Shown here piece after piece: positions 4,311 through 46,361 of a stretch of 64,000 bases of DNA. The stretch's first letter is position 1, and every line of letters starts with the position of its first letter. The stretch is from Candidatus Moraniibacteriota bacterium (GTDB lineage: Bacteria; Patescibacteriota; Minisyncoccia; Moranbacterales; DUUL01), in the NCBI GenBank assembly GCA_027008775.1, contig JALVDV010000007.1:5797-69796 (forward strand), read 5' to 3'. The position numbers and the translations under genes are program-made. The notes beneath the pieces were generated by a model, which saw only the letters and a program-made list of their open reading frames with translations, made no database searches and was not told the origin of the DNA.

Positions 4311-4340
4311 ACAATAAAAAAATCGGTTAAACCGATTTTG
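4311..4340 (-). terminator. intrinsic terminator downstream of the minus-strand tRNA. Hairpin aaatcgg-ttaaa-ccgattt, followed on the minus strand by a T-run.
   Basis: 7-bp stem, A-run on the + strand (T-run on the - strand) at 4311-4320. Confidence 0.5.
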
Positions 4341-4413
4341 TGCCCTTGGCAGGAGTCGAACCTACGACCTTTCGGACCGCAACCGAACGCTCTATCCACT
4401 GAGCTACAAGGGC
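4341..4413 (-). tRNA. tRNA-Arg. A manual cloverleaf gives anticodon loop TTGCGGT, i.e. anticodon GCG.
   Basis: The reverse complement GCCCTTGTAGCTCAGTGGATAGAGCGTTCGGTTGCGGTCCGAAAGGTCGTAGGTTCGACTCCTGCCAAGGGCA folds with a 7-bp acceptor stem, GCTC/GAGC D stem, TTCGG/CCGAA anticodon stem and GTAGG/CCTGC T stem with a TTCGACT loop. No encoded CCA. Confidence 0.8.
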
Positions 4414-5415: not shown

Positions 5416-5638
5416 ATAAGTTTCTTTTTTTATTATATACCGAAACAGCAGTTTGGCAAATTTTTTAAAGGTTGCTGTTGATTAACATTGTAAATTTTGT
5501 GGCGATTACTTTTTGCTAGAAAACTGATTTTTCTAAATTAGTTTGTGGAAGATTGTTTGTCTAAAAAATAAAATCAATTATAATGAAAGGGAGATGATAG
5601 AATAATTTTGAGAAAGAGAGGAAAAAGAAAAAATAAGT

Positions 5639-7063
5639 TTGTTGTTTATTATGCCGGAGAAAGTTATCAGGGTTTTCCCGCGGGGATTTTGTGCCGGGGT
5701 GACCAGGTCAATCAAGGCGGTGGAAGAAGCTTTGCGATTGTTTGGTCCGCCAATTTATGTTAAACATGCTATTGTACACAACAAAACCGTTATAGCTGAT
5801 CTGGAGCGAAAAGGGGCGGTCTTTGTTGAGGATTTAAAAGAAGTGCCTGAGGGGGCGACAGTTGTTTTCAGCGCGCATGGGTCTCCGCCGGAGCATTTTC
5901 GGGAAGCTAAAAAAAGAGGGTTGAGGTTAATTGACGCCACTTGTCCTTTGGTAACCAAGGTTCATTTTGAAATCGTTAAGGCTATTAAGGAGGGAAAACA
6001 ACCACTTTATATCGGTCACAAGGATCATGTGGAGGCGCAGGGAGTATTGGGGGAAGCAGAGCGACTTGGAGTTTCTGTGCCGGTTGTTAAAGATGAAAAG
6101 GATGTGGAGCTTTTGGATTTGAAAACAAAAAAGCCGATTGTAATTCTGGCGCAGACAACTTTCAAGGCGGAAAAAATTAAAGAGTTGGCGAAGCTTTTAC
6201 AGAAAAAGTTTGTCGGACAGAGGGTTGAGTTGATTGAAGACGATATCTGTTACGCCACCAGCAATAGGCAGAGGGCGATAACCGAATTGGCCAAAAAGGT
6301 GGAGGTGGTTTTGGTGGTTGGATCTAAAGAATCTTCCAATTCCAATCGTCTGGTGGAAGTGGCTAAGGAGGCCGGAGCGGAAGCTTTTTTGTTGGATGGC
6401 GTGGAAGATTTGCGGGCTGAGTGGTGGCGAGGGAAAAAGACGGTAGGACTATCGGCCGGAGCCAGCGCGCCGGAGTATAAGGTGCAAGAGTTGGCGGATT
6501 TTTTTCAAAAAAAAGGAGCCAGTTTGGAAGAATTGACCTTTGAGGAGAGGGAGTTGGTTTTTAAGGAGCCCTTGGAATTGGTGAAGATAAGACAAGCGTT
6601 GTCTCGGCTTAAAATTGAGTTTAATGGGGGAGGATTTGATATCAAAAAAGATTTTGTGGAAAATATTTTGCGGGAAACATTTTTGACTTTGTTGGAGAAG
6701 AAAGTTTTAACAAAAGAGGATTGTTGGCGACTAAGTGTGGCGGCGGTCACAAAGGCAACGATTAGAAAATTGAATAAAAAATGGCGTCAGACAGATAAAG
6801 AAACCGATGTTTTATCTTTCTATTACGGTCGAGAAGATGACTGCAAGGAAGGAGAGATTGTTTTGGCGCCGGAGGTTATTGCCGGAAATGCCAAGGAGGA
6901 CGGAGTTCCTTTTGATTATGAGTTGGCGAAAAATTTAATTCACAGTTTTTTACACATTATCGGTTATGAGCACAGTCGGGAGATGTTTGTTTGGCAAGAT
7001 AAAATTTTGAAGAGAATATTGAATAATAACTTAATAGGGAAAGAAAATGAGAAAATTTCTTAG
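5639..7063 (+). CDS. ispH: IspH (4-hydroxy-3-methylbut-2-enyl diphosphate reductase, LytB; aa 1-~318) fused in frame to the endoribonuclease YbeY (aa ~335-474)
   Basis: - IspH part: PRGFCAGV, DATCPLVTKVH, ICYATSNRQ (the three Fe-S cysteine motifs), SSNSNRL, FEERELVFKEPLEL C-terminus.
- YbeY part: TDVLSF, and HSFLHIIGYEH (the H-x3-H-x5-H metal triad).
- No stop or ATG between the two domains. Confidence 0.85.
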   Translation: MLFIMPEKVIRVFPRGFCAGVTRSIKAVEEALRLFGPPIYVKHAIVHNKTVIADLERKGAVFVEDLKEVPEGATVVFSAHGSPPEHFREAKKRGLRLIDATCPLVTKVHFEIVKAIKEGKQPLYIGHKDHVEAQGVLGEAERLGVSVPVVKDEKDVELLDLKTKKPIVILAQTTFKAEKIKELAKLLQKKFVGQRVELIEDDICYATSNRQRAITELAKKVEVVLVVGSKESSNSNRLVEVAKEAGAEAFLLDGVEDLRAEWWRGKKTVGLSAGASAPEYKVQELADFFQKKGASLEELTFEERELVFKEPLELVKIRQALSRLKIEFNGGGFDIKKDFVENILRETFLTLLEKKVLTKEDCWRLSVAAVTKATIRKLNKKWRQTDKETDVLSFYYGREDDCKEGEIVLAPEVIAGNAKEDGVPFDYELAKNLIHSFLHIIGYEHSREMFVWQDKILKRILNNNLIGKENEKIS

Positions 7064-7406
7064 AAGTTTTTGTTTCGCTTTAGAAGGTCTGTGGGCTTTG
7101 TTGAAAACGGAGCGCAATTTTAGAATAGAAATGGCGGTGGCTTTATTGGTTCTTTTTTTAATGTTCTACTTGGATTTAACTTTTTTAGAAAGGTTGATTT
7201 TATTCTTTGTGACAATGGCTGTTTTGATAATGGAAATCGTTAATACGGTTTTGGAAAAGTTATTGGATTTACAAAGGAAACGAAAAGATAGAAGGGTAAA
7301 ATTTTTGAAAGACGCGATGGCGGGAGCGGTTTTGTTAACGGCCGTTTTGGCTTTGGTTTCCGGCTTATTTATTTTTGGGCACTATTTTTTCAAGAATTGG
7401 TTTTAA
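7047..7406 (+). CDS. dgkA: diacylglycerol/undecaprenol kinase DgkA
   Basis: EIVNTVLEKLLD matches the prokaryotic DAGK signature. Three TM helices. It overlaps the end of ybeY by 17 nt, and ybeY-dgkA is the conserved order. Confidence 0.7.
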   Translation: MRKFLRSFCFALEGLWALLKTERNFRIEMAVALLVLFLMFYLDLTFLERLILFFVTMAVLIMEIVNTVLEKLLDLQRKRKDRRVKFLKDAMAGAVLLTAVLALVSGLFIFGHYFFKNWF

Positions 7407-7407
7407 T

Positions 7408-7435
7408 TTGACAATATTCGCTTGTTTGTTACAAT
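7408..7435 (+). promoter_or_regulatory. sigma70-type promoter TTGACA-16nt-TACAAT, followed by a hairpin (aaacggg...cccgttt)
   Basis: Near-consensus -35 and -10 hexamers about 110 nt upstream of the ATG at 7546. Confidence 0.4.
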
Positions 7436-7545
7436 AACGGGCAAACGGGGGTATCTCAGGTATCCCGTTTGAACATTAACAAGTAAATTTTTGTCAATCT
7501 CTCGGAGATTGGGCAGAATAATTTCTAGAAAGCGAGGTGAAAATA

Positions 7546-8264
7546 TGGAAGAAAAAATAGAGACTCAAGAGGACTTGAGCAAAGGAGGGAAATTTAAGAA
7601 TTGGCTTCAGGATAATATCAGGATTATTTTATCGGTTTTAATCGTGGCCACTATTGCTGTCGGGATTTATTCTTATTCCAACAGACAGGTGGAAACGGTA
7701 GCCGACAACGGTCAGGAGAAAGTGAATTTGGCCGGTGAAGTGAAGGGGGGAGAAGAAGGAGTTGTAACTGTTGAAGGACAGGGTGAAAAGAAGAAAAAGG
7801 AAGAGAAGAAAAATTCCAGCCAAAAGCTTTCTGTTGAAGAAAAAAAAGAAACTGAAAAGGCTGCTGAAGCCAAGCAAAAAACCGAGGAGGGCAAAAAATC
7901 TCAACAAGCTGAAGGTCAAGCTGTTAAGAGGGTTCAAAAAGAGGAGAACAAAAATGTTAGTGAGGAAACAGAGCATTCTTTCTTGGAAACAGCTTCGGCC
8001 GGAGACAGTTTGACAACTTTGGCGCGTAGGGCCTTGAAGGACTACTTGGCCAAAAATCCGGTGGAAGGTTTGACGCCGGAGCACAAGATTTACATAGAGG
8101 ACTATCTTAGACGTCATGTAAATCATTCCAGTAGAGTTTTGGTGGGAGAGAAGATTTCTTTCTCCAAAGACTTAATTGCTCAGGCTGTAAAGGCGTCACA
8201 GAACTTGAGTGATACTCAGCTAAAAAACTTGCACAAGTATGTGGTTAGAGTGTCTAACTTATAG
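7546..8264 (+). CDS. membrane-anchored Lys/Glu-rich low-complexity protein with a C-terminal globular domain (hypothetical)
   Basis: GAGGTG RBS 7 nt before ATG 7546. One N-terminal TM (IRIILSVLIVATIAVGIYSY). The E/K-rich spacer explains the many spurious antisense ORFs. The ORF track extends it to 7491 through an alternative start. Confidence 0.5.
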
Positions 8265-8494: not shown

Positions 8495-10282
8495 ATGTTG
8501 AAAAATAAATTAGAAAGTATTTTAATTGAATTTTTGCGAGAGAGTGGATTTTTGACGGCTGATATTCAGTCAGACTTGCTTAAACTAGAAATTCCTCCCA
8601 ATTTGGAGTGGGGTGATTTGTCTTTGCCTTGTTTTGGTTTGGCTAAGATTAAAAAGAAATCGCCGGTGGAAGTGGCTGAAGAGGTAGCTGTTTTGTTAAG
8701 GTCTGAAAAAGCGCAGAAAGACGGTTTGTCAGACAAGGTGATTGAAGTCAAGGCGATGGGTCCTTATGTTAATCTAAAATTAAAAAGCAAGTTTTCTTTT
8801 GGGGAAATTTACAATGATGTTTTTGCCAAAAAAACTGTTGCCGGGGCAACTCTTGCCGGGAAGAAGCGAGAGCAAGTAATGTTGGAATATCTTTCGCCGA
8901 ATACCAACAAGCCTTTACATTTGGGTCATTTGCGGAACGGAGTTCTGGGGATGAGTCTGGCCAATATTTTGGAGGCCAGGGGAGAAGATGTTTTAAAAAC
9001 AACCTTGATTAACGACAGAGGAGTTCATATTTGCAAGAGTATGTTGGCTTGGAAAAAGTTTGGAAACGGTGATACTCCAATCAGCACCGGGGTTAAAGGT
9101 GATCATTTTGTGGGTGATTACTATGTAAAATTTGCTCAAGAGGCGGAGGTTAATCCGGAGTTAGGGGAGGAGGCGCAACTGATGCTGAAAAAATGGGAAG
9201 AAGGCGACGAGAAAGTTAGGAAAATTTGGCAGAGAATGAATGATTGGGTTTGGGATGGTTTCAAAAAAACATTCAAGGTTTTCGGTTTTAAGTTTGATGT
9301 GATTTACAAAGAGTCGGAAACCTATCGTCTGGGTAAAGATATTGTTTTGGAGGGATTAAGAAAGGGGATTTTCCAGAAAGACGCCAAGGGAGCGGTAATT
9401 TTTGTTTTACCGCGGGAGTTCGGTTTAGATGAAAATGGTCAGAGGAAAAGAGTAACGCTTTTACGCGCTGATGGCACCAGTGTTTATCTGACGCAAGATT
9501 TGGGTACGGCTGTAAAGAGGATGAATGATTTTGTCTTGGATAAAATGATTTATGTGGTGGCCAGTGAGCAAAATTACCATTTTAAGGTTTTGTTTGCTGT
9601 TTTGAAAGCGCTGGGTTATACTTGGGCGAACAAGCTTTTTCATCTCTCTTATGAGATGGTCTATCTGCCAGAGGGTAAAATGAAATCTCGCGAGGGAAAG
9701 GTGGTTGACGCTGACGATTTGCTGGAAGAAGTTAAAAATTTGGCAAAGAAAGGTTTATTAGAGAGACATTCGGAAAAGAAATTATCGGAGAAAGAAGCGG
9801 AAAAAAGAAGTTTAAAGATTGCTTTGGCGGCAATTAAATTTTATTTGTTGAGAGTTAATCCTTCTCAGACGATTAATTTTAATCCGGAAGAGTCGCTTTC
9901 TTTTGAAGGCTTTACCGGACCTTATTGTCAGTATGCTTATGCTAGAGGGAGCAAGTTGTTGCGGGATGGAGGAGTTGATTTAAAGGAGAAATTAGAGACC
10001 GATTTTTCCCAATTGGGTAGTCGGTCGGAGAGAGCATTGCTAATGCTGATTGCCCGGCGAGAGGAGAAAATAAAAATGGCCGAGGAGGATTTTAATCCGG
10101 CTGTTTTGGCCAATTATGCTTTTGAGTTGGCCAAAGCTTTCAATCATTTTTATCATCAAGAGTCTATTCTGAAAGCGGAAACTGGTTTGAAAAAAGCGCG
10201 TCTGGCATTGGTGCAAACTTTCTTATTAACTTTGGAGGAAGTCTTGTCTTTACTGGGGATAGAAGTTTTGGCAGAAATGTAG
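8495..10282 (+). CDS. argS: arginine--tRNA ligase
   Basis: Class I HIGH motif PLHLGHLRN, an ArgS-type anticodon-binding C-terminus, ~595 aa. Confidence 0.9.
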   Translation: MLKNKLESILIEFLRESGFLTADIQSDLLKLEIPPNLEWGDLSLPCFGLAKIKKKSPVEVAEEVAVLLRSEKAQKDGLSDKVIEVKAMGPYVNLKLKSKFSFGEIYNDVFAKKTVAGATLAGKKREQVMLEYLSPNTNKPLHLGHLRNGVLGMSLANILEARGEDVLKTTLINDRGVHICKSMLAWKKFGNGDTPISTGVKGDHFVGDYYVKFAQEAEVNPELGEEAQLMLKKWEEGDEKVRKIWQRMNDWVWDGFKKTFKVFGFKFDVIYKESETYRLGKDIVLEGLRKGIFQKDAKGAVIFVLPREFGLDENGQRKRVTLLRADGTSVYLTQDLGTAVKRMNDFVLDKMIYVVASEQNYHFKVLFAVLKALGYTWANKLFHLSYEMVYLPEGKMKSREGKVVDADDLLEEVKNLAKKGLLERHSEKKLSEKEAEKRSLKIALAAIKFYLLRVNPSQTINFNPEESLSFEGFTGPYCQYAYARGSKLLRDGGVDLKEKLETDFSQLGSRSERALLMLIARREEKIKMAEEDFNPAVLANYAFELAKAFNHFYHQESILKAETGLKKARLALVQTFLLTLEEVLSLLGIEVLAEM

Positions 10283-16038: not shown

Positions 16039-17172
16039 ATGAGTAGCAAGTTACTAGGGAGTTTGCTGGGTGGTATTTCCGAGGTTTTTGATAAAGACGA
16101 CACAGCTGTCGGAGTTGATGTTGGGAGTAACAGTATTAAGGTGGTTTCGCTTAAAAGAAAGGGGGAAAAGATTGTTTTGGATAATTATGCGGTAGTGAGA
16201 AGCGAAGATAAACTTTTGAATTTAGCCAATCCGGGAGTTATCAATGATTTGGCGGGGGTTGTTGCCAAACAAGCTTTGGAAGCGGCCGGTATAAAAGAAA
16301 AAAAGGTGAATGTGGCCACTCCGAGCTTTACTTCTTTGGTGGTAACCATTGAAGTTCCCAAGATGCCCGAGGAGCAATTTGAGGAAGCGGTTCGCAAGGA
16401 AGTTTCCAAATATATTCCGGTGAGCATTGAAGACGTGGTTTATGATTGGCAGGTAATCAATGAAGATGTTTTGCAAAGTAATGAGAAGGCTATTACGCCG
16501 GAGGAACGACAGAAGCTTCAAAATCAGTCCAATTCGGTAAAGATTTTGGTGATCGCTATTATAAAAGAAATAAGCGCTAGGTATAATAAGGTTTTTAGAG
16601 ATAATGGTTTGGAGTTGAACCTGTTGGAGATAGACTCTATTTCTTTGGCCAGGGCTCTGGCCGGGCCGGAAGGGGAGATTTCTTTGATTTTGGACATTGG
16701 ACATGAAACCTGCAATGTGATCATTTCTTCTCGGGAAGGGTTGTTGTTGAATAGAACGATAGATGTTGGAGGAGACACTATAACCAGAAAAATTGCCGAA
16801 ACTTTGGGAGTTGATTTTGCGGAGGCGGAGCGTTTAAAAATAGAAAAGGGATTGCACCTGGTGGATTCGAAAAGTGGAAAAAATATTTCTCTGGAGCCGG
16901 TGATTAAAATAGTGGATGAGCTAAAAAGGACACTCAAGATTTTTGAGGAAGATTTTCAGAGGTTAAAAGTGAAGGAAGTCTATTTAACCGGGGGTTCGGC
17001 GGCAATGATTGGTTTGAAAGATTTTTTGGAAAAAGAGCTGAATTTGCCGGTTTTGGTAGCCAACCCTTTGCGAGGAATCGCTTTTGCGCCGGAAGTAGAA
17101 GAGGCTTTATTGAAGCATGCTCCGCTGTTGACCATTGCTATCGGATTGGCTTTGGCCAATTTTGAAAAATAA
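16039..17172 (+). CDS. pilM: type IV pilus assembly protein PilM (actin-like ATPase fold)
   Basis: VGVDVGSNSIKVV phosphate-1 motif, later DIGHETCNV. It opens the pilMNO-pilB-pilT-pilC operon. Confidence 0.8.
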   Translation: MSSKLLGSLLGGISEVFDKDDTAVGVDVGSNSIKVVSLKRKGEKIVLDNYAVVRSEDKLLNLANPGVINDLAGVVAKQALEAAGIKEKKVNVATPSFTSLVVTIEVPKMPEEQFEEAVRKEVSKYIPVSIEDVVYDWQVINEDVLQSNEKAITPEERQKLQNQSNSVKILVIAIIKEISARYNKVFRDNGLELNLLEIDSISLARALAGPEGEISLILDIGHETCNVIISSREGLLLNRTIDVGGDTITRKIAETLGVDFAEAERLKIEKGLHLVDSKSGKNISLEPVIKIVDELKRTLKIFEEDFQRLKVKEVYLTGGSAAMIGLKDFLEKELNLPVLVANPLRGIAFAPEVEEALLKHAPLLTIAIGLALANFEK

Positions 17173-17255
17173 GGAACAAAAATAAAATAAAAATAAAAAG
17201 TAAATTAAATTTTTTTGGTCTGAATTTTTAGGCCGAGAAAATTGTTGAAAAAACA

Positions 17256-17837
17256 GTGAAGAAGATAAATTTGAAAGCCGGGGAGATAAAGGGTGACTCC
17301 TCCTCAATCTCGGGAGGTGGTTTTGGCGCCATCCTTTCCGCAGTTTTTGTTTTGGTTTTGACGGCCGGTTTATACGGAGCGTCCTACTACCTCTTGAAAC
17401 GAGAGCAGGGTAAAAAGCGGCATCTGGAGACGGAGATTGTTAATATCAAAAATAGTTTAGATAGAAATCAGGAGTTTCAAAAACTGTATGCTTTTCAAGA
17501 AAGACTTTTTAATTTGTCTGAAATTTTTAATGTCAAAATTGGGCAGGCTGAATTTCTTTCTCGTCTTTCGGCCAAAACTTTGGATAGAAATACTGTTAAG
17601 GATTTAAATATTGACTTCAAAGAAGGAAGCAGAAAGATTGTGTTGACGGAAGTTGTGCCCGATCTGTCAAGTTTGGCTGAGCAAATTGCGGCTTATAACT
17701 CCCTTGACAAGGAAGGGCAGGCTTCTTTGACTGATATGAAATTGCAAGGTGATGCTTTGGAGTCCACCATTTCTTTTAATTTAAAAGAGAAGGAGAAACA
17801 GACCGGAAAAACCGGTGATTCTTCCGCGGGGAAGTAG
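17256..17837 (+). CDS. pilN: PilN-like bitopic pilus assembly protein
   Basis: Single N-terminal TM, coiled periplasmic region, position immediately after pilM. Confidence 0.5.
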   Translation: MKKINLKAGEIKGDSSSISGGGFGAILSAVFVLVLTAGLYGASYYLLKREQGKKRHLETEIVNIKNSLDRNQEFQKLYAFQERLFNLSEIFNVKIGQAEFLSRLSAKTLDRNTVKDLNIDFKEGSRKIVLTEVVPDLSSLAEQIAAYNSLDKEGQASLTDMKLQGDALESTISFNLKEKEKQTGKTGDSSAGK

Positions 17838-17878
17838 TTTATTGTTTTATTGTTAATAATAATTTATTCAATAACTAG

Positions 17879-18700
17879 ATGAACATTAGGCTTTTATTTT
17901 TACCTCTCTCCATTGTTGTTTTTTTGTGGGTGACAATTGGTTTTACTAAAAGCAATTGGGATCAGTACCGGCAGACGAAGAAAGAGGTGAAAGAATTGAC
18001 CGTTTCCAGAGATAAATTGGCTCGGGGTGTGAGTAAAATTAGAAAGGCTTTGGCTGATTACAAGGCTTTGGACGAAGAAACTCTTCTTTATGTTAACAAT
18101 GCTTTGCCGGAGAAGAAGAAGGCGGAGGATTTGGTGGCGGAATTAAATAAGAATGCCAGTCAGGGAGGGGTTTTGTTGACCAAGGTTACTGTGGCTCAAA
18201 ACAGACAGAGGCGCAGAACAAATTGTTCGCGAAAAAGCGGGACTGCCAGCGCTAAGAGTGGGGCCAGGCCAAATTGTGTGGCTCAGCCCGACAGTTTACA
18301 AGTGAGATTGACTTTATTTTCTTCTTATTTGTCCGCTAAGAATTTTTTGGCCAAACTGGATAAGGAGAATAGGGTTATTTTGCCGGTAGCTTTGCGAATA
18401 TCTAAGAATACAAACAAACAACAGGCTGAGGAAAACAAGGATAAATTGGGAGAGGGTGGTACCGGAGAGGATTTGGTGAGTACCGATTTGCGTTTCAATA
18501 TTTTTTACAAAAAACCGAGAAGCGAGAATTTGAGATTTTCTCAAATGTTGGGCAAGGATAAAGTTTTGGACAGTTTGTTGAGTAAGGGCTTGGCCAAGGA
18601 TACTATTGATAAATTAAAAGAAGTTGTTGGCGGACAACTTTTCCGGCCGGTGGAAGTTGGAAATACCGGAAAAGAAGATTTGTTTAAAAAGAATTCGTAA
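17879..18700 (+). CDS. pilO: PilO-like bitopic pilus assembly protein
   Basis: N-terminal TM (LLFLPLSIVVFLWVTIGF), position between pilN and pilB. Confidence 0.45.
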   Translation: MNIRLLFLPLSIVVFLWVTIGFTKSNWDQYRQTKKEVKELTVSRDKLARGVSKIRKALADYKALDEETLLYVNNALPEKKKAEDLVAELNKNASQGGVLLTKVTVAQNRQRRRTNCSRKSGTASAKSGARPNCVAQPDSLQVRLTLFSSYLSAKNFLAKLDKENRVILPVALRISKNTNKQQAEENKDKLGEGGTGEDLVSTDLRFNIFYKKPRSENLRFSQMLGKDKVLDSLLSKGLAKDTIDKLKEVVGGQLFRPVEVGNTGKEDLFKKNS

Positions 18701-18709
18701 AATATTGAC

Positions 18710-20563
18710 ATGGTTGATCTTGATAATGGTAATAGTAAAAACGAAGGGAACTCTAAGGAAGAGAGTTCTGCTCCAGAGACGAGCTCGCCTGCTTCAGCCG
18801 GGACAAGTGGAGGAACTTCTTCTTTAGTTGGTCAGCCGGGGCAAAAAGGGGTGAATGGCGATGACGTTGTTCAAAGTGAAGATTCTTCCAATGTTGACTG
18901 GGAGAAGTTGCAGATTGATGAGAAGGCTTTGGATCTGGTTTCTATTGAGTCATTGGATAAATTTAAATTTATTCCTTTTGAAGTGCGTGATGACTTTGTG
19001 AAGGTGGCGGTGGTTGATCCTAATGATATGAATACCCAGAATGCTTTGCGATTCTTTTCTCGGAAGGTTAGGAAGCGTCTAGAAATTTATCCGGTAGATG
19101 AAAGCACTTTTGATCTGCTTCTCAATAAAATCAGGAACAGGTTTATTGATGTGGAGAGTGCTTTGGATGTCTATGAAAAAAAGGAAGAGGAGGAGTCCAA
19201 GCGAAAGCAGACCAGTTTGCGTCGGCGGAAAACGACTACACAAATCTTGAAGGATGCGCCAATTTCCAAGATGGTGGAGTCTATCATTGAAAATGCCATT
19301 GACAGTAATGCCAGTGATATCCATATAGAACCCTTGGAAGACAGTGTTAGGGTGAGATACAGAATTGATGGCGATTTGCGGACGGTGGTTGTTCTACCGA
19401 AAAAAATAGCTCCGGCTTTGGTTTCGCGTATCAAGATTTTGGCCAATTTAAAAATTGATGAAAAAAGAAAACCGCAAGATGGCCGTTTTAGAATCAATGA
19501 TTTGGGGAGAGTGATAGATTTCAGGGTTTCCTCTTTTCCGACGGCCAACGGAGAAAAAGTGGTTTTACGTATTTTGGATACCAAGGAAGGCTTGATGAAG
19601 TTGGAGAAGTTGGGAATTATGCCGCGGGAGCGTAGAATTATTGAGGCGGCTATTCATGAGCCTTACGGGATAATTTTGATTACCGGTCCGACCGGTAGCG
19701 GAAAGTCAACCACTTTGTATTCCATGTTGCGAATAATCAACAAGGAGAATGTCAATATCATTACCCTGGAAGACCCGATAGAGTACATTTTGAAGGGGAT
19801 TAATCAAAGCCAAATCAGACCGGAAATCGGCTATACTTTTGCTTCCGGTTTGCGGAGTGTCTTGCGACAAGATCCGGATATTATTATGGTGGGTGAGATT
19901 AGAGATCAAGAGACGGCGGAGTTGGCTATCCATGCTTCTTTGACCGGTCATTTGGTTTTGTCCACCTTACATACCAACTCGGCGGCCGGGGCTGTTCCGC
20001 GTTTGATTGATATGGGTATTCAACCATTTCTATTGGCTTCTTCTTTGCGTTTGTTGATGGCACAGCGTTTGGTGAGGAAGATTTGTCAGTATTGCAAACA
20101 GCCGGTGGAGGATTTGCCGGAGGAGGTGCAACAGCAAATCAAAGATGATTTGCGTTTGGTGCCCAAGAAAATTTTTGCCGACAGAGGGATAGAGTTGGAT
20201 GTCAATGATCCCAATAGTAAAGTGGTGGTTTACAAAGGAGTTGGATGCCCCAAGTGTCAGGGCAAGGGCATGAAAGGAAGAATTGGTATTTTTGAGGTTA
20301 TTGAGGCAGATAAAAAATTTAATCGATTGGTTAGTAAAGGTGTTTTGGGCCCGGAATTGGAAGCCGAGGCTCGCAAGAATGGTTTTATCACGATGAAGGA
20401 AGACGGACTGTTGAAAGTTTTAATGGGCTTAACAACACTGGAAGAAGTGGAAAGGGTGACTGAAGATGACTGGACAGAGGAAAATGAAGAAATCAATCTT
20501 AAAAACAAAAAAGTTGAGAAGAGTGAAGGGGAGGAGAGCGATCAGAACAACTTAACCACTTAA
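18710..20563 (+). CDS. pilB: type IV pilus extension ATPase PilB (GspE family)
   Basis: Walker A ILITGPTGSGKSTTL, Asp/His boxes, the tetra-Cys motif CQYC...CPKC, a GSPII_E N-domain, and a low-complexity S/T/G N-terminal extension. Confidence 0.9.
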   Translation: MVDLDNGNSKNEGNSKEESSAPETSSPASAGTSGGTSSLVGQPGQKGVNGDDVVQSEDSSNVDWEKLQIDEKALDLVSIESLDKFKFIPFEVRDDFVKVAVVDPNDMNTQNALRFFSRKVRKRLEIYPVDESTFDLLLNKIRNRFIDVESALDVYEKKEEEESKRKQTSLRRRKTTTQILKDAPISKMVESIIENAIDSNASDIHIEPLEDSVRVRYRIDGDLRTVVVLPKKIAPALVSRIKILANLKIDEKRKPQDGRFRINDLGRVIDFRVSSFPTANGEKVVLRILDTKEGLMKLEKLGIMPRERRIIEAAIHEPYGIILITGPTGSGKSTTLYSMLRIINKENVNIITLEDPIEYILKGINQSQIRPEIGYTFASGLRSVLRQDPDIIMVGEIRDQETAELAIHASLTGHLVLSTLHTNSAAGAVPRLIDMGIQPFLLASSLRLLMAQRLVRKICQYCKQPVEDLPEEVQQQIKDDLRLVPKKIFADRGIELDVNDPNSKVVVYKGVGCPKCQGKGMKGRIGIFEVIEADKKFNRLVSKGVLGPELEAEARKNGFITMKEDGLLKVLMGLTTLEEVERVTEDDWTEENEEINLKNKKVEKSEGEESDQNNLTT

Positions 20564-20586
20564 TCTTTTGAGATATAATTATTTAT

Positions 20587-21681
20587 TTGATATTTATGCA
20601 AACGGAAAGTTTAAAAGAAAGACTAAATAAATACTTGAACTATGTTGTTCAGCAAGGCTGTTCTGATTTACATCTTTCTGTCAATGAATATCCAATTGTT
20701 CGTTTGGATGGTGATTTGTATCGCTTGGATAAAGAGCCGAAATTGACCAAGCAGGATATGGGGGAATTGGCCAAAGCGATTCTGGATGATTTGAAATTGA
20801 AAAAGTTGAAAGAGGATAGAACGATTGATTTTTCGGTGGCTTTGGAAAACGGCGATAGATTTAGAGCGAATATGTTTTTTCAAAAGGGCAATTTGAGTTT
20901 GGCCTTAAGATATATTCCGAAAAAAATAAAGACATTACAGGAGTTGAATATGCCCGCTCATATTTATAATTTTATGGAGAAGAGTCAGGGTTTGTTTCTG
21001 GTGACCGGTCCGACAGGTCACGGGAAGAGTACGACTTTGGCGGCATTAATAGATTATTTGAATGTTAACAAGCGCTATCATATTGTTACCATAGAAGATC
21101 CGATAGAATATTTGCATGAATCTAAACAATCTTTAATAGAACAACGGGAGGTTTTTTCCGATGCTTTGGATTTTGCTTCCGCTTTGCGCTCGGCTTTTCG
21201 TGAAGATGTGGATGCGATTTTATTGGGAGAGATGCGTGACTTGGAAACGATCTCCACAGCGGTGACGGCGGCGGAGACAGGGCATTTGATTTTGGCCACT
21301 TTGCATACCAATGATTCCATCCAAACGGTTGACAGGATTATTGATATATTTCCTCCGCACCAACAGAATCAGATCAGGGCGCAGTTGGCAAATGTCTTGG
21401 TGGGTATTGTTTCTCAGAGGCTTTTAAAAAAGAAAAATGGAGGAAGAATTCCGGCAGTGGAAGTTTTGATTAACAATGTGGCCGTTCAGAACCTGATTCG
21501 AGAAAAACAGACTCATCAGATCGGAACGGTTATTGATACATCTTTAGACAAAGGAATGATAAGCATCAATCGTTCTTTGGCGCGCTTGGTTAAACAAGGT
21601 ATTGTTGATATTCATGAGGCGGAGGCTTATGCAACCAATTTAGACTCCTTCAAAATGTTTTTGGAAGCGGAGGAGGCTTAG
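20587..21681 (+). CDS. pilT: type IV pilus retraction ATPase PilT
   Basis: Walker A FLVTGPTGHGKSTTLAA, ~364 aa, PilT-specific AIRNLIRE-like LIREKQTHQ. Confidence 0.9.
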   Translation: MIFMQTESLKERLNKYLNYVVQQGCSDLHLSVNEYPIVRLDGDLYRLDKEPKLTKQDMGELAKAILDDLKLKKLKEDRTIDFSVALENGDRFRANMFFQKGNLSLALRYIPKKIKTLQELNMPAHIYNFMEKSQGLFLVTGPTGHGKSTTLAALIDYLNVNKRYHIVTIEDPIEYLHESKQSLIEQREVFSDALDFASALRSAFREDVDAILLGEMRDLETISTAVTAAETGHLILATLHTNDSIQTVDRIIDIFPPHQQNQIRAQLANVLVGIVSQRLLKKKNGGRIPAVEVLINNVAVQNLIREKQTHQIGTVIDTSLDKGMISINRSLARLVKQGIVDIHEAEAYATNLDSFKMFLEAEEA

Positions 21682-21730
21682 TCGGGCGATTTTGTTTTTA
21701 TCTATAAATTCATCATTAAAATAAGAGGAA

Positions 21731-22939
21731 ATGCGCTTTAAGTACAAGGGAAAAAATAGAGAGGGTGTCTGGCAGAAGGGTATTGTAGAAACAATTTCCA
21801 GGCATTCGGCGGAAAAACTGTTGAGTTCCTACGGATTGACCGAGGTTGAATTGAAAGAAATCAAACCCAACAGTTTACAGGAGATTTTGTATAAAATGTT
21901 GAACGGAGTTAGCCCCAAGGAATTTGTGATTTTTTCCAGACAGTTGGCTATTTTGATAGATTCCAATGTGCCCTTGTTGTCCGCTTTGAATTCCATTGTG
22001 GAACAGACGGAAAATTCTTTCTTTGCTTTAAAATTGAAGTCAATAATGTTTGATGTGGATGCCGGCATGTCTCTTTCGGAGGCCTTGTCCAAACATAGAG
22101 ATATTTTTTCCGATTTTTATATCAGTATGATCAGGGCCGGTGAGGTTTCGGGGACTTTACAAAAAACTTTGAATAAGCTGGCTGATAATATAGAAAAAAA
22201 TTACGAGTTGACTTCGGCTCTAAAAGGAGCGATGTATTACCCGGCTTTTGTTTTGTCGGCGATGGTGGCTGTCGGGGCCTTAATGATGGTGACGGTTATT
22301 CCCAAGTTGCTGGAAATATTGACGGAGACTAATCAAACTTTGCCTTTGCAAACACGACTTTTGATTTGGACCAGTAATTTTATGGTGCACTATTGGTGGG
22401 CGGCTCTGTTAGTGGTGGTCGCTCTAATTATCCTGGTGACTTACTATTTGAAAACTCCTTCCGGCCGACGTCAATTCGACCAGATTGTGATTAAGTTGCC
22501 GATTGTTGGCAGAATATTGAGAAATATTTACGTGGCTCGTTTTGCGGAAAATTTGGAGACTTTGTTGGAGAGTGGTTTGCCTATCAGGCTGTCACTGGAT
22601 ATTACGGCGGATGTAATAGGCAATTCGGTTTTTCGCGATATTGTGAAGCAAGCGGCGGAAGAAATTAAAAAGGGTGGAAATCTGTCGGAGGTGTTGGGTC
22701 GTTACGAGGAGATTCCGCCGGTGATGGTGCAGATGGTGGAAGTGGGGGAGCACACGGGTAGAATATCTTTTTCTTTGGGAAAAATATCTGAATTTTATAC
22801 CAAGGAAGTGGATAGGATGGTGCAGAATTTCTCTACCTTGATTGAACCGGTTTTGATGGTGTTTTTGGCGATTGGAGTGGGAATTTTGGTTTCGGCTATT
22901 CTGTTACCGATTTACCAGGTGGCAATGAGTATAAAATAA
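21731..22939 (+). CDS. pilC: type IV pilus platform protein PilC (GspF family)
   Basis: Duplicated GspF domains with 3-4 TM helices, ~400 aa. Confidence 0.85.
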   Translation: MRFKYKGKNREGVWQKGIVETISRHSAEKLLSSYGLTEVELKEIKPNSLQEILYKMLNGVSPKEFVIFSRQLAILIDSNVPLLSALNSIVEQTENSFFALKLKSIMFDVDAGMSLSEALSKHRDIFSDFYISMIRAGEVSGTLQKTLNKLADNIEKNYELTSALKGAMYYPAFVLSAMVAVGALMMVTVIPKLLEILTETNQTLPLQTRLLIWTSNFMVHYWWAALLVVVALIILVTYYLKTPSGRRQFDQIVIKLPIVGRILRNIYVARFAENLETLLESGLPIRLSLDITADVIGNSVFRDIVKQAAEEIKKGGNLSEVLGRYEEIPPVMVQMVEVGEHTGRISFSLGKISEFYTKEVDRMVQNFSTLIEPVLMVFLAIGVGILVSAILLPIYQVAMSIK

Positions 22940-23065
22940 TATATTTGGCTAAATTGGTGTTGGATATTTTTTGATTGTATGTTATAATTCTCTTGTGGAA
23001 TAGTATCTGGGAAGAATTAAAATAATATAAAAATTAAAATAAAATAGAATGGAGGTGAGTAAAGT

Positions 23066-23512
23066 ATGAAATTGAAGAGTAATTCAAGGGGTTTTACGCT
23101 GGTGGAGTTGCTTTTGGTGATCGCCATTATCGGTATTTTGGCAGCAGTTGTTTTCATTGTGATTGGTCCGGCGCGTAAAAAAGCTCGGGTAGCCACTTTC
23201 AAAGAGCATATGGTTGATTTGGTAAAGGCCGGAGCTTCTTGTATAGACAGTGAAGGGATAATACAAGATGGGCAGGCTGATGGTACGCAACCCTTTTGTC
23301 TAAATAGTGCCGGAAATCCAGTTGGTGGTTTAGACAATATTCCAGAGATAAAGGTTTGTAGAGGTGGTTCAGGTGTGATAACGATCAGTGTTCAGAATGG
23401 TGGCAGTGATGATTTTGAGATTACGGCTGATTGCCCAGTAAGTGACACTGCCAATTGTACCGCTGATTGTACTATTGGTGGTTGTACGTTTAGTGATGAA
23501 TGTAATCTATAA
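23066..23512 (+). CDS. type IV major pilin paralog 1
   Basis: Class III signal ...SRGFTLVELLLVIAIIGILAAV (prepilin cleavage G|F, Glu+5). C-terminal Cys pairs. GGAGG RBS. Confidence 0.8.
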   Translation: MKLKSNSRGFTLVELLLVIAIIGILAAVVFIVIGPARKKARVATFKEHMVDLVKAGASCIDSEGIIQDGQADGTQPFCLNSAGNPVGGLDNIPEIKVCRGGSGVITISVQNGGSDDFEITADCPVSDTANCTADCTIGGCTFSDECNL

Positions 23513-23688
23513 TGTTTTAGAAATCGGTTATGGGTTTTTAGGACGGGTTCGTCTTAAAAACTCATATTCCGGTTTTTAGAGTGTTAGTTTTTGTTGTGGC
23601 TTGGGTGGATTTGTTTGGGAAAGGCGTCGCTTTATTGGAGACAGTAAAGTGTTTAGATATAACATCGTATTTATTAAAGCGAAAAAAT

Positions 23689-24081
23689 ATGTTGCGGAAA
23701 AATAAAAGTGGTTTTACCTTAGTTGAGATATTATTGGTGATCGCGGTTATTGGGATTTTGTCCAGTGTAATCATGGTGGGGATTGGTGGTGTTCGGAAAA
23801 AAGCCAGAACATCGGCAGCTCTGAAAACGGCCGAGAGCGCAACGGCTGAACTGGCGCATTGTTATTTAAATGATAAGCCTATTACACCGTGGACCAATAA
23901 TATAAATGGTGGCGGAATTATCTGTTCTGGCGCCGGGGAATGGCCTTCTTTAACGCATCGTTGTCATTATGATATTTTTAATGCTGCTAATTATGAGTTT
24001 TCAATTAAGTGTAATGATGACCAGCATACCATAACTTGCAATTACGCCGATGGTAAGTGTATCGTCAGTTATGGTAGCTAG
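23689..24081 (+). CDS. type IV pilin paralog 2
   Basis: MLRKNKSGFTLVEILLVIAVIGILSS, with C-terminal cysteines. ATG 23689 is chosen over the longer alternative-start ORF at 23581. Confidence 0.75.
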   Translation: MLRKNKSGFTLVEILLVIAVIGILSSVIMVGIGGVRKKARTSAALKTAESATAELAHCYLNDKPITPWTNNINGGGIICSGAGEWPSLTHRCHYDIFNAANYEFSIKCNDDQHTITCNYADGKCIVSYGS

Positions 24082-24137
24082 CAGGTTTTTATTTGACTTT
24101 GATTAGTGAGCGTTTTGTTAATAGATAAACAGAAAAA

Positions 24138-24593
24138 ATGAGATTTGGTTTTTTGAAGAGGGAAAATGGTTTTACTTTAATAGAATTATTAACAGTGATG
24201 GCCATTATTGGGATTTTGTCGGCGGCGATGCTGATTACTTTATCGGTTTACAAGAAAAGAGCGACGGCTAGCAAGTTGTTGCTAGAATTATCTTCAGCTA
24301 TGCAAAAGGTTTATCTTTGTATTTCCGATGGAAATCAGGTTGCTCAACCGACTGATGCCGGTGGGGGTGTCATTTGTCAAGATGCAGGTGATAATGATTT
24401 GCCAAATTATGGACGTTGGCCCGAATTACCTTCCGGATATGTGTATCAATCGTCTTCTTCTTTTGGGAATAGCTGGTTTTATATGGTTACCAGTGGTGAT
24501 GGTGACTTGAGGATTTGTTGCAATTCAACTTCCGGTAAATGTAAGAAATTTGATTCGGTCGCTCCCTGTAATACAACTACAGATTTAAATTAG
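24138..24593 (+). CDS. type IV pilin paralog 3
   Basis: MRFGFLKRENGFTLIELLTVMAIIGILSAA, with four C-terminal cysteines. Confidence 0.75.
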   Translation: MRFGFLKRENGFTLIELLTVMAIIGILSAAMLITLSVYKKRATASKLLLELSSAMQKVYLCISDGNQVAQPTDAGGGVICQDAGDNDLPNYGRWPELPSGYVYQSSSSFGNSWFYMVTSGDGDLRICCNSTSGKCKKFDSVAPCNTTTDLN

Positions 24594-24598
24594 CCTTT

Positions 24599-25417
24599 AT
24601 GTTTTGGTTGGTATTTTTCAAGTTTTCGGTTGTTTTCGTGTTGGGTTTGATTTTTGGCAGTTTTGCCGGGGTGTTAATAGAAAGAGGAGAGAAAGGAGAA
24701 AGTTTGCGGGGGCGCTCCCATTGTGATCATTGTAAAAAGAAAATAGTTTGGTACGACAATATCCCGGTGGTCAGTTTTCTGTTGTTACGGGGCAGGTGTC
24801 GCTATTGTGGGCAAAGAATATCTTGGTGGCACCCTTTGACAGAACTGATTTTTGGGGTAACGTTTGTTGGGTTAGCTTGGCAGAGCGGATTTTTTGCCGG
24901 TTGGCTCAGTGGTGATGATATTTGGCGGACTGTTTTTTGCCTGGCCATCGGTTTTATTCTTTTGACAATTTTGTTTTGGGATTGGAAGTATATGATAATT
25001 CCCGATGGGCTGGTGGTAGGAGGGCTAGTCATCGGAGTTCTTTTTTATCTGCGCGCTTATTTGCTTTCCCCGGATACCTTGTTGGCGGTGAATACTGATT
25101 TGAGTCGTAATTTATTGGGTGGTTTGGCAGTTGGAGGATTTTTTTATTTGCTTTGGCGATTTTCTCGGGGGAAATGGATTGGCGGTGGTGATGTTAAGTT
25201 GGGGTTTTTAGTTGGGTTTTTGGTTGGTTGGAAATTGTCTTACTTTTTGTTACTCTTGAGTTATCTTTTGGGAGCTGTGCCGGCGTTGTATTTGTTGTTG
25301 ATAGGGAAGGCAAAGGCTGGGAGTAAAATTCCTTTTGGGCCTTTCTTGGTTTTGGCTACCTTGATCGTTTTATGCTGGTCGGATAGGCTTAGTCATTTGT
25401 TAAAATATTGGTTTTAA
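24599..25417 (+). CDS. pilD: prepilin peptidase PilD (A24 family)
   Basis: Tetra-Cys zinc motif CDHC...CRYC, multiple TM helices, catalytic Asp region (IIPDG). Confidence 0.85.
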   Translation: MFWLVFFKFSVVFVLGLIFGSFAGVLIERGEKGESLRGRSHCDHCKKKIVWYDNIPVVSFLLLRGRCRYCGQRISWWHPLTELIFGVTFVGLAWQSGFFAGWLSGDDIWRTVFCLAIGFILLTILFWDWKYMIIPDGLVVGGLVIGVLFYLRAYLLSPDTLLAVNTDLSRNLLGGLAVGGFFYLLWRFSRGKWIGGGDVKLGFLVGFLVGWKLSYFLLLLSYLLGAVPALYLLLIGKAKAGSKIPFGPFLVLATLIVLCWSDRLSHLLKYWF

Positions 25418-25432
25418 ATTAGCTTAAAGTAA

Positions 25433-26119
25433 ATGTTCAAGCTGCGTTTAGAAAAGAAAAATAAAAGTAAAAAGGAAAACGGGAAAGAGGGTTCTATTGC
25501 CGGTCATTTTTTCAGGCAGGCCGGGTTTTTGTTTGTAAAAAAGGGAGTTGTTTCAGGTTTTCAGGCCGGTTTTACTTTAATTGAAATGGTGATAGTGATT
25601 GCCATGATTGGAATTATTACCGGGGCGACATTGAAACTGGTGAGATTTTCCGACATTTACAAAAATTTGACTTTGAAAACGATGGAAATTAAAGGAATTT
25701 TGCGAAACGCTCAGATTTTGTCTTTGGCGCCGCCGGTTATTGAGAAAGATGGAAACAAGTTGCTGATTTGCGGATTTGGCTTGCGGAACGACAGTTCTGA
25801 TCTGTCCAAGGTTTCGCTTTTTTATTCCTATTCTCCAAATAATGAGGTGGAAGATTGTGCCAATATAGGAAATATTGGTGATGTCTGTGATGAGGTGGGT
25901 GCGGGTAATGCTTGCCTAGATTATGAGACGAAGAAATTTGATGGTTTTACGATTACCAGAGATGGCAATAGTCAGCCGGTTAAGATATTTTTCCGCTCTC
26001 CTTATGGTGAGACCGTTGGGGTTGCTGATACCGGTTATAATATTGTTATAAAACAGGCTGAAAACAATTACACCAAGACTATTAAGGTAAACAAATTTGG
26101 CAAAATAAATGAAGAGTAA
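25433..26119 (+). CDS. minor pilin / pseudopilin (prepilin-type N-terminal cleavage/methylation domain)
   Basis: QAGFTLIEMVIVIAMIG after a long basic leader. The start codon is uncertain. Confidence 0.6.
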   Translation: MFKLRLEKKNKSKKENGKEGSIAGHFFRQAGFLFVKKGVVSGFQAGFTLIEMVIVIAMIGIITGATLKLVRFSDIYKNLTLKTMEIKGILRNAQILSLAPPVIEKDGNKLLICGFGLRNDSSDLSKVSLFYSYSPNNEVEDCANIGNIGDVCDEVGAGNACLDYETKKFDGFTITRDGNSQPVKIFFRSPYGETVGVADTGYNIVIKQAENNYTKTIKVNKFGKINEE

Positions 26120-26687
26120 GAAGCTTTTTGAGCAAAACAAAGAACGTATATCGGATGAAGCCGGTTACACTTTGATAGAAATAGTGATCGTTTTATTATT
26201 GGTAGCATTTGGTTTTGTCGGCTCTTATCAGTTATTTGTGACTTCTCTGCGAGCGGATACGGAAAGTCGGTATGAAATTATTGCCGGAGAGTTGTTGCAG
26301 GAGGGTCTGGAGATTATTAAAAACAAGAAGGAGGAGAATGATTTGAAGTGGGCTATTTGGGATCCGTCAGATGAGGATGAGCCAAAACTAAATGAGGGGA
26401 TGCGGAATGTTGATTTTAACCCGATAGTTGATTTCAATACCAAGACAATTGAATTTGAAACAAATCATTTTAATTTACAGTACGATTTAGATAAAAAAGA
26501 ATATGTATTGCAAAATAATTGTTCCAATTGTGTTGGACCGGTTTTTGAAAGAAAGTGTACTCAGAGTTTAAATGCTGACGAGGATGTGCTAAGGGCCAGA
26601 TGTACGGTTTCTTGGCAGAGTGTTTTAGCGGGGGGTGGGGAAAGGAGTATTTTGGCGGAAACGGCTTTAACGGATTGGGAGAGATAG
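26109..26687 (+). CDS. minor pilin / pseudopilin
   Basis: EAGYTLIEIVIVLLLVAFG prepilin motif. 11-nt overlap with the upstream gene. Confidence 0.6.
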   Translation: MKSKKLFEQNKERISDEAGYTLIEIVIVLLLVAFGFVGSYQLFVTSLRADTESRYEIIAGELLQEGLEIIKNKKEENDLKWAIWDPSDEDEPKLNEGMRNVDFNPIVDFNTKTIEFETNHFNLQYDLDKKEYVLQNNCSNCVGPVFERKCTQSLNADEDVLRARCTVSWQSVLAGGGERSILAETALTDWER

Positions 26688-26719
26688 GTTTATTGTTCTA
26701 ATTGGAAAATTTTTAGAAA

Positions 26720-27385: not shown

Positions 27386-27458
27386 CTTGATTTTTGTGGA
27401 AATGGATTTTTGTTTGCAGGGAATTTGAAAATTTTAAATAAAAAATAATAATAAAATT

Positions 27459-42624: not shown

Positions 42625-46361
<3,737 letters not shown>

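Follow-up and report, generated by a model that had tools for sequence, protein, structure and literature searches.

Natural fusions of IspH (LytB) to other proteins form a known class, for which a census published in 2015 listed ribosomal protein S1 (RPS1; 447 sequences), UbiA (47), CMP kinase, helicase, FBPase and UDP/PNP phosphorylase as partners and contained no YbeY (PMC4746011). The current report concerns a single gene, ispH::ybeY, that joins IspH in frame to YbeY and that lies in a stretch of 64,000 nucleotides from a Candidatus Moraniibacteriota bacterium (Patescibacteria; assembly GCA_027008775.1, contig JALVDV010000007.1, positions 5,797 to 69,796 of the forward strand). We refer to this whole stretch as the window, and its positions are used throughout. 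YbeY is a previously uncatalogued partner within the known class of IspH fusions.

The closest described counterpart is IspH-RPS1 (NF000907; Rao et al. 2015, PMC4746011), which, like the fusion of the window, carries a catalytically complete IspH at its N-terminus and a partner related to the 30S ribosomal subunit at its C-terminus. It has been viewed as a "Rosetta stone" fusion of unresolved functional logic, and the same can be said of the fusion in the window. A role connected with the ribosome or the stringent response, or a role as a sensor of iron or oxygen, has been proposed for IspH-RPS1, and its IspH activity was unchanged after removal of the S1 domains (PMC4746011). The two fusions differ in the nature of the partner (a YbeY metallo-RNase of ~150 amino acids in the window, four S1 OB-fold repeats in IspH-RPS1), in their hosts (Patescibacteria versus Clostridia, Fusobacteria and other anaerobes) and in their abundance (a handful of lineages versus more than 400 sequences), and the NF000907 model matched only the IspH part of the window protein, with 233 bits against a cut-off of 624. 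The fusions IspH-UbiA, CMP kinase-IspH-RPS1, IspH-helicase, FBPase-IspH and UDP/PNP phosphorylase-IspH (PMC4746011) also combine a second enzyme with an intact IspH, and in IspH-UbiA the partner is C-terminal, as it is in the window. None of these other catalogued fusions contains YbeY or any RNase, and whereas IspH-UbiA joins two isoprenoid steps, YbeY has no known isoprenoid role.

For YbeY, an Era-YbeY fusion of clostridial species, as cited in Wood et al. 2019 (PMC6738653), likewise unites the protein with a partner from its operon neighbourhood and shows that YbeY can be built into a longer polypeptide. Era is known to bind YbeY and to work with it in the maturation of the 30S subunit, whereas no interaction between IspH and YbeY is known. 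The Firmicute operon ybeZ(phoH)-ybeY-dgkA-cdd-era (PMC6738653) resembles the locus of the window in that dgkA directly follows ybeY and in that a gene of ribosome maturation is paired with the gene of a lipid or carrier-lipid kinase; DgkA is the undecaprenol kinase of B. subtilis, and the same role applies to its Gram-positive homologs (PMC5723303). In the window, however, ispH takes the place of ybeZ upstream of ybeY and is fused to it, and neither cdd nor era follows.

The reading of the locus from the sequence alone (hereafter the sequence-only reading) had called the fusion unusual, and the searches bear this out. With the last 90 amino acids of IspH plus YbeY as the query, a HMMER search of 1.84 billion cluster representatives returned no protein spanning both halves among the best 150 matches, all of which were YbeY-only proteins or IspH C-termini. 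A search with the YbeY half alone gave 33 candidates and a single match, and missed known relatives as well. A full-text search of the literature for an IspH-YbeY fusion returned nothing relevant.

The fused gene and its conservation

The following features, all within the window, define the fused gene and its two modules.

5639..7063, plus strand: uninterrupted open reading frame (ORF) of 474 amino acids if the TTG at 5639 is the start; from the ORF list and the sequence.
5651..7063, plus strand: ispH::ybeY fused gene with an ATG start, 470 amino acids and stop.
5651..6598, plus strand: IspH (LytB) module, amino acids 1-316; from Pfam, NCBIfam, the alignment to E. coli IspH, Foldseek and dN/dS.
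5690-5692, 5942-5944 and 6248-6250, plus strand: codons of Cys14, Cys98 and Cys200, the [4Fe-4S] ligands by alignment to the cluster cysteines of E. coli IspH.
6599..7060, plus strand: YbeY module, amino acids 317-470; from Pfam, NCBIfam, sequence matches in the Protein Data Bank (PDB), Foldseek and dN/dS.
6941-6973, plus strand: metal-binding H-x3-H-x5-H motif (H431, H435, H441), invariant in the fused proteins.

The ATG at 5651 is the start chosen by public gene callers and agrees with the N-termini of the homologs; the resulting 470-amino acid product is already present in public protein collections. The in-frame fusion without an intervening stop that had been described from the sequence was confirmed as one ORF in which both domains score above their family cut-offs. 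In the N-terminal module, Pfam LYTB (PF02401) was matched with an E-value of 1e-83 and 281 bits (cut-off 24.5) and the NCBIfam equivalog TIGR00216 (ispH) with 287 bits (cut-off 187.85), while the alignment to E. coli IspH (E-value 2e-81) covers amino acids 5-314, including the C-terminal VFxxPxEL...IR tail, and ends about 2 residues short of the C-terminus of the E. coli protein. The three cluster-ligand cysteine motifs and the SSNSNRL motif of a complete IspH, as listed in the sequence-only reading, were all found intact. Cys98 and Cys200 are invariant in seven of seven fused sequences, and Cys14 is identical in the six that cover its region, the remaining one (P0091) being truncated at the N-terminus. 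The His of VHN, the His of SAHG, the His and Glu of GHxxHxE, the Thr of QTT, the SSNSN stretch and the Ser of GASAP, which serve in substrate binding and proton relay in the E. coli structures, are all identical to those of E. coli IspH, and the active-site positions that the truncated P0091 covers are invariant across all of the fused proteins. When superposed by Foldseek on the E. coli complex of IspH with (E)-4-hydroxy-3-methylbut-2-enyl diphosphate (HMBPP; 3ke8), the predicted module gave a template-modelling (TM) score of 0.94 and a root-mean-square deviation of 1.9 A over 308 columns; in the model, it is a complete trefoil IspH fold of three domains.

The C-terminal module matched Pfam YbeY (PF02130) with an E-value of 6e-23 and 81.6 bits (cut-off 25) and NCBIfam TIGR00043 (YbeY) with 87.1 bits (cut-off 45). 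Both motifs on which the call of a complete YbeY had been based are in place: TDVLSF is present and conserved, and H431-SFL-H435-IIGYE-H441 aligns with HGILHLAGYDH of TM1509 and AQ_1354, which, together with the YbeY proteins of S. aureus and E. coli, are also the PDB sequence matches of this module. Foldseek placed the module on full-length YbeY of A. aeolicus, S. aureus and E. coli with TM-scores of 0.69-0.79, the best match being 1oz9 (141 residues; TM-score 0.79 over 145 columns), and residue 1 of stand-alone YbeY aligns to amino acid 317 (nucleotide 6599). As modelled, the YbeY fold is thus full-length and includes the N-terminal strand, as opposed to a truncated domain. No second copy of ybeY or ispH is present within the 64-kb window.

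A missed stop codon or a homopolymer indel could falsely join two genes, and the sequence-only reading had raised the possibility of such a sequencing frameshift. The region is A/T-rich and contains homopolymer runs, for example A8 at 6508-6515, and assemblies of metagenome-assembled genomes (MAGs) do contain errors of this kind. The same architecture is, however, found repeatedly in nature. The 90% cluster of the window protein holds four more full-length variants of 470 amino acids that are 92-99% identical and come from other contigs, samples and assemblies, so that the uninterrupted ORF of 1410 nucleotides exists in at least five variants. Five diverged homologs with fused LYTB and YbeY domains (P0002-P0005 and P0091; 51-58% identical) stem from separate samples (JGI, ENA and NCBI), all with dgkA downstream, and the differences in linker length among fused homologs are whole codons. 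The fusion is reproduced in at least ten independent contigs from about five lineages. Between the window and its relative L088 (92% amino acid and 91% nucleotide identity), both of 1410 nucleotides, there are no indels at a dS of ~0.37, and dN/dS is 0.052 for IspH, 0.159 for YbeY and 0.27 over the 18 junction codons. Since these values are far below 1 in both halves, both have been under purifying selection while fused. Recurrence in independent assemblies and diverged lineages together with this selection excludes an artefact, the probability of which we regard as negligible. The gene is a genuine, heritable and conserved IspH-YbeY fusion in a lineage of the Patescibacteria (Candidate Phyla Radiation, CPR).

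The fused gene is accompanied by dgkA and by sites that resemble promoters.

5557..5584, plus strand: sigma-70-like promoter candidate, TTGTCT-16-TATAAT, upstream of the fused gene; 10/12 in a consensus scan, a pattern match only.
7047..7406, plus strand: dgkA, of the prokaryotic diacylglycerol/undecaprenol kinase family (Pfam DAGK_prokar, E-value 3e-28).
7408..7435, plus strand: promoter-like site, TTGACA-16-TACAAT with TG, directly after dgkA; 11/12 in the consensus scan, a pattern match only.

The overlapping dgkA that had been read from the sequence is indeed there, and its start overlaps the end of the fused ORF by 17 nucleotides. It lies 3' of ybeY in all of the fused and unfused relatives examined, as the third member of an ispH-ybeY-dgkA unit. 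The site at 7408..7435 probably marks the 3' boundary of the ispH::ybeY-dgkA unit, and the pattern matches on its two sides suggest a unit of two cistrons. Directly 3' of dgkA there is a Lys/Glu-rich protein of ~260 amino acids without a Pfam match (window 7491-8264, plus strand; L009 5847-6632; L001 9827-10633); it is kept in fused and unfused relatives and may belong to the same conserved neighbourhood. At locus L089, an inserted metallophosphoesterase gene (1416-2099) separates the fused ispH::ybeY from dgkA and shares 50 nucleotides with the 3' end of the fused ORF.

Unfused relatives, the junction and the number of fusion events

The sequence-only reading had allowed that orthologs might always be separate genes; the search of relatives gave fused as well as split ones. 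In the closest unfused relatives, L005/L007 (a Patescibacteria MAG), L008 and L009, the genes ispH, ybeY and dgkA are separate and adjacent, with ispH-ybeY spacers of 105 nucleotides in L005, 18 in L008 and 43 in L009, and L009 has the flanking genes of the window on both sides. The 43-nucleotide spacer of L009 (4461-4503) consists mostly of four tandem copies of AAGTATA, a slippage-prone sequence that could ease changes of spacer length and fusion. Adjacency of ispH and ybeY, scored with verified YbeY-only queries, was found at 13 of 174 IspH loci, all 13 of them in this small clade. It was absent from 77 other loci of species representatives and from 80 metagenome loci; the latter, among the matches listed, have mostly ~45-48% identical IspH proteins (53-56% for the top two) and include no members of the clade. 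Nor is ybeY beside ispH in two other contexts from Patescibacteria, rmuC downstream of ispH and of pyruvate:ferredoxin oxidoreductase (PFOR) genes (PFOR-ispH-rmuC) and maf-ispH-M50.

The conversion of separate into fused genes can be followed directly in a sister lineage. In L008, ispH and ybeY already share a frame, with one TAA and 18 nucleotides between them, and in the nucleotide alignment this TAA stands opposite GAA in the fused sisters L087 and L175, the grouping having a bootstrap of 99-100%. In comparison with L008, the spacer of L087 and L175 is now translated and has been shortened to 12 nucleotides, and the ATG of ybeY has been replaced by a non-start codon. This is a stop-to-sense mechanism of fusion. 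Its operation in the lineage of the window can only be inferred because even the closest relative with split genes (~63% amino acid identity) is too far removed for a reconstruction at the nucleotide level. There, the ancestor would have had the clade-specific ispH-ybeY-dgkA unit with a very short ispH-ybeY spacer, and loss of the ispH stop, absorption or in-frame deletion of the spacer and loss of the ybeY ATG would have left one ORF.

The fusion appears to have arisen several times within this small group of Patescibacteria, as judged from sequence trees. A tree of 75 IspH sequences scatters the fused proteins over at least four or five positions among the unfused ones. Neighbour-joining trees of IspH, YbeY, DgkA and their concatenation, drawn from the ten loci that carry the cluster, each gave a single split between fused and unfused forms in 0 of 500 bootstraps, and in the concatenated tree the pairing of L008 (unfused) with L087 (fused) and of L009 (unfused) with L003 and L089 (fused) has 99-100% support. 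Because fused and unfused loci interleave, their history calls for no fewer than three fissions or four fusions, and independent fusions are the more economical account, given the many unfused sequences on the 75-sequence tree. The junction sequences also differ between fused lineages.

Two features of the window bear on the boundary between the modules.

6572..6625, plus strand: junction, comprising the C-terminal helix of IspH (LELVKIRQAL, amino acids 308-317), 2 residues and then strand 1 of YbeY (LKIEFN, amino acids 320-325); from AlphaFold and from comparison to unfused orthologs.
6599..6601, plus strand: in-frame TTG (Leu317), to which Met1 of unfused YbeY (P0121, L009) aligns; TTG also in L088.

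The sequence that crosses the junction of the fused protein is VKIRQALSRLKIEF; IRQALSRLKIEFNGGGFDIK. The IspH module aligns as far as amino acid 314 and the YbeY strand begins at amino acid 320, and the junction is therefore only ~2-6 residues long, which replaces the linker of ~20 residues assumed from the sequence alone. The AlphaFold model, built from an alignment of 48 sequences of which 7 cover the YbeY half and the junction, has a mean predicted local distance difference test (pLDDT) value of 90.9, with 90-95 across the junction, and a predicted TM-score (pTM) of 0.85. A rigid packing of the two modules is predicted by it and weakly supported, by a pTM without predicted aligned error and by the 7 sequences at the YbeY half. 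No solved structure found by Foldseek covers both modules.

The earlier statement that the frame contains no internal ATG holds near the junction, the only other Met being amino acid 445. A GTG (6656) had been taken for the sole internal alternative start; several in-frame TTG and GTG codons in fact occur near the junction, among them the TTG at 6599-6601. This TTG, at the ancestral position of the ybeY start, may survive as a vestige of that start or act weakly as an internal one. Two proteins might be made from the locus, by initiation at this codon in addition to or mainly instead of the full-length product, or by cleavage at the junction; free YbeY would then persist in the cell, next to an IspH that is free or extended. 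The TTG coincides exactly with the ancestral Met and is kept in the relative of 92% identity. No convincing Shine-Dalgarno (SD) sequence lies upstream of it: its SD duplex score of -5.8 is inside the background of internal codons, and the value in L088 is -1.9, in an analysis whose threshold is passed by 41% of internal codons and which does not tell the real starts of this genome from internal ones. The unfused ybeY genes of the clade likewise have no SD, so that its absence at 6599 is uninformative. A consensus scan gave no strong promoter-like site just upstream of 6599, and the junction is predicted to be structured, as opposed to an exposed, cleavable linker. In other fused lineages, the codon at the former ybeY start is TTA (L003), ATA or ACT (L087, L175) or missing (L089), yet YbeY is intact and conserved; since several fused lineages thus have no start codon at this place and their YbeY module is conserved, the fused form would there be a functional source of YbeY. 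On balance, a second product from the window locus is unlikely, although less so than the other alternatives considered here.

A different state of the junction is seen at L001 (lineage P0005), where a strong GGGAGGA SD and an in-frame ATG are kept at the former ybeY start (8955-8969; duplex dG -11.8 kcal/mol). This locus looks like a recent fusion that may still make free YbeY as well, and it speaks for two products.

Genomic setting and the metabolic role of IspH

The window represents ordinary chromosomal DNA of a Patescibacteria-like genome, with 40% guanine plus cytosine. It also encodes RecG, ArgRS, a ComF-like protein, a Clp ATPase, a type IV pilus cluster, Mur ligases, TsaE, MnmA, LigA, DnaG, RpoD, FtsA/FtsZ, S12/S7/EF-G/EF-Tu, MraZ/MraW and a penicillin-binding protein (PBP). 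The peptidoglycan genes in this inventory (Mur ligases, PBP, MraZ/MraW) imply a need for undecaprenyl phosphate and hence provide a rationale for IspH.

The genes of the methylerythritol phosphate (MEP) pathway are normally scattered in bacterial genomes. The window contains none of dxs, dxr, ispDEFG or uppS, and in view of this scatter their absence from 64 kb says little. The MEP pathway has been reported to be sparse in CPR bacteria (PMC6107057). One might then suppose that the organism has no such pathway and that the IspH of the window is an orphan, is decaying as a remnant or has been turned into an N-terminal extension of YbeY without catalytic function, and decay had been considered in the sequence-only reading as well. 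The state of the module contradicts this. Its cluster cysteines and its substrate-binding His, Glu, Thr, Ser and Asn residues are those of E. coli IspH and do not vary among the fused proteins; with a dN/dS of 0.05 it is under stricter selection than YbeY; and its model superposes on the IspH:HMBPP complex as closely as noted above (TM-score 0.94). We consider an orphan IspH very improbable.

Several observations concern IspH genes elsewhere. In a Patescibacteria lineage represented by P0028 (L092 595-4939, L093 1638-3679), ispH comes directly after genes for PFOR subunits and ferredoxin and overlaps the last PFOR gene by 4 nucleotides, an arrangement that may be an electron-donor operon for IspH. 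P0081, P0089, L010 and L011 have IspH proteins 51-54% identical to that of the window and are labelled as Micrarchaeota, Woesearchaeota, "archaeon" or Methanosarcinales MAGs; these archaeal labels fit earlier reports that CPR bacteria and DPANN archaea share MEP genes, and they would also fit mis-binning.

Other parts of the window have features of their own. A complete type IV pilus cluster at 16039-28241 (plus strand), of the kind typical for episymbiotic Patescibacteria, encodes PilM, PilB-like and PilT-like ATPases, PilC, at least five N-methyl pilins, a prepilin peptidase and PilX_N. Paralogous coupling-protein ATPases of the TrwB/VirD4 type, one of them with a treble-clef zinc finger, are encoded at 39015-40973 and 42625-44163 (plus strand) on either side of the tRNA thiolase gene mnmA. 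The sole RNA gene detected by an Rfam scan of the 64 kb, which found none in the region of the fusion, is a tRNA-Arg with anticodon GCG at 4340-4413 (minus strand). Bacteria usually decode CGN codons by a tRNA-Arg(ACG) that TadA edits to ICG, and the tRNA-Arg(GCG) may point to an unusual decoding arrangement in this lineage.

Possible functions and meaning of the fusion

We think it likely that ispH::ybeY specifies a real bifunctional polypeptide, each module of which would carry out its canonical reaction, and that the fusion fixes the two activities in 1:1 co-expression. Of the two benefits named in the sequence-only reading, assured co-expression is plausible, whereas a tie of IspH levels to ribosome biogenesis is speculative. 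The product would be a two-module polypeptide of ~53 kDa. Its N-terminal module would act as the [4Fe-4S] HMBPP reductase that yields isopentenyl and dimethylallyl diphosphate for undecaprenyl phosphate, and its C-terminal module as the YbeY metallo-endoribonuclease of 16S rRNA 3'-end maturation and ribosome quality control. In a compact operon, the fusion would set the ratio of two housekeeping proteins, and the overlap of 17 nucleotides would couple the translation of dgkA to theirs. It might have come about as a by-product of tight packing in the operon and have been kept because it is costless and fixes co-expression. The analysis establishes the ORF, its two intact modules, purifying selection, recurrence across assemblies and lineages, the neighbouring genes of unfused relatives and the change from stop to sense codon in a sister lineage; the sole production of the fused polypeptide, the survival of both activities and an advantage through co-expression are inferred.

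Several points weigh against this account. The 53-kDa product and the survival of both activities are read from sequence, and so is the metabolic role of IspH, which is deduced from conservation in a window that contains no other gene of its pathway. The TTG at 6599 could still give a separate YbeY, as the signals kept at L001 illustrate. The number of events and their direction, fusion or fission, are approximate, the trees being neighbour-joining trees of 300-560 columns.

A bolder proposal is that selection has favoured the coupling itself, YbeY tethering the Fe-S enzyme IspH, by virtue of an affinity for the 30S platform and the 3' end of 16S rRNA, to immature or defective 30S subunits, or the reverse, so that the isoprenoid, redox or iron status of the cell and the maturation or quality control of ribosomes would be linked. 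That the boundary between the genes changed, by closing or opening, at least 3-4 times within a single small clade, one common event having no bootstrap support, might be read in this way, as might the loss of the ybeY start in several fused lineages, where YbeY exists only as part of the fusion, and the short junction with its predicted structure (pTM 0.85). S1 and YbeY both act at the platform of the 30S subunit near the 3' end of 16S rRNA. With more than 400 IspH-S1 fusions known (PMC4746011), there is also a precedent for joining IspH to such a protein. Neighbouring genes that are 18-105 nucleotides apart and sometimes in the same frame fuse easily by chance, however, and the recurrence may reflect this opportunity; close relatives thrive with split genes, the fusion is rare overall, and the IspH activity of IspH-RPS1 did not depend on its S1 part (PMC4746011). 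What favours the proposal is circumstantial. We therefore hold selection for functional coupling to be rather improbable, and the bifunctional polypeptide with fixed co-expression is preferred.

A related idea, to which we would likewise give long odds, is that IspH has a second, ribosome-linked role, as it has become fused in two unrelated groups to unrelated proteins of the 30S platform near the 3' end of 16S rRNA (to S1 in Clostridia and Fusobacteria, to YbeY in Patescibacteria), in Patescibacteria recurrently. If this were true, an oxygen- and iron-sensitive [4Fe-4S] enzyme would have been placed deliberately on small ribosomal subunits, where it could sense or gate, and thereby couple redox, iron or isoprenoid status to 16S maturation, to ribosome quality control or to the stringent response.

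Whatever its function, the fusion extends the short list of natural IspH partners by YbeY, a nuclease of rRNA maturation. The addition is modest, and in annotation the corresponding ORFs in MAGs of such Patescibacteria should be left as bifunctional genes instead of being "corrected" for a supposed frameshift. With it, IspH is found joined for a second time, and independently, to a protein associated with the 30S subunit, at a time when the meaning of IspH-S1 and the old link between lytB and the stringent response are still unsettled, and a compact IspH-YbeY of 470 amino acids with naturally split close relatives provides a clean comparative system for a ribosome-related role of IspH. For the biology of the group, the ispH-ybeY-dgkA unit offers a well-resolved example of how operon neighbours in the streamlined genomes of CPR bacteria can fuse repeatedly through a simple change from a stop to a sense codon.

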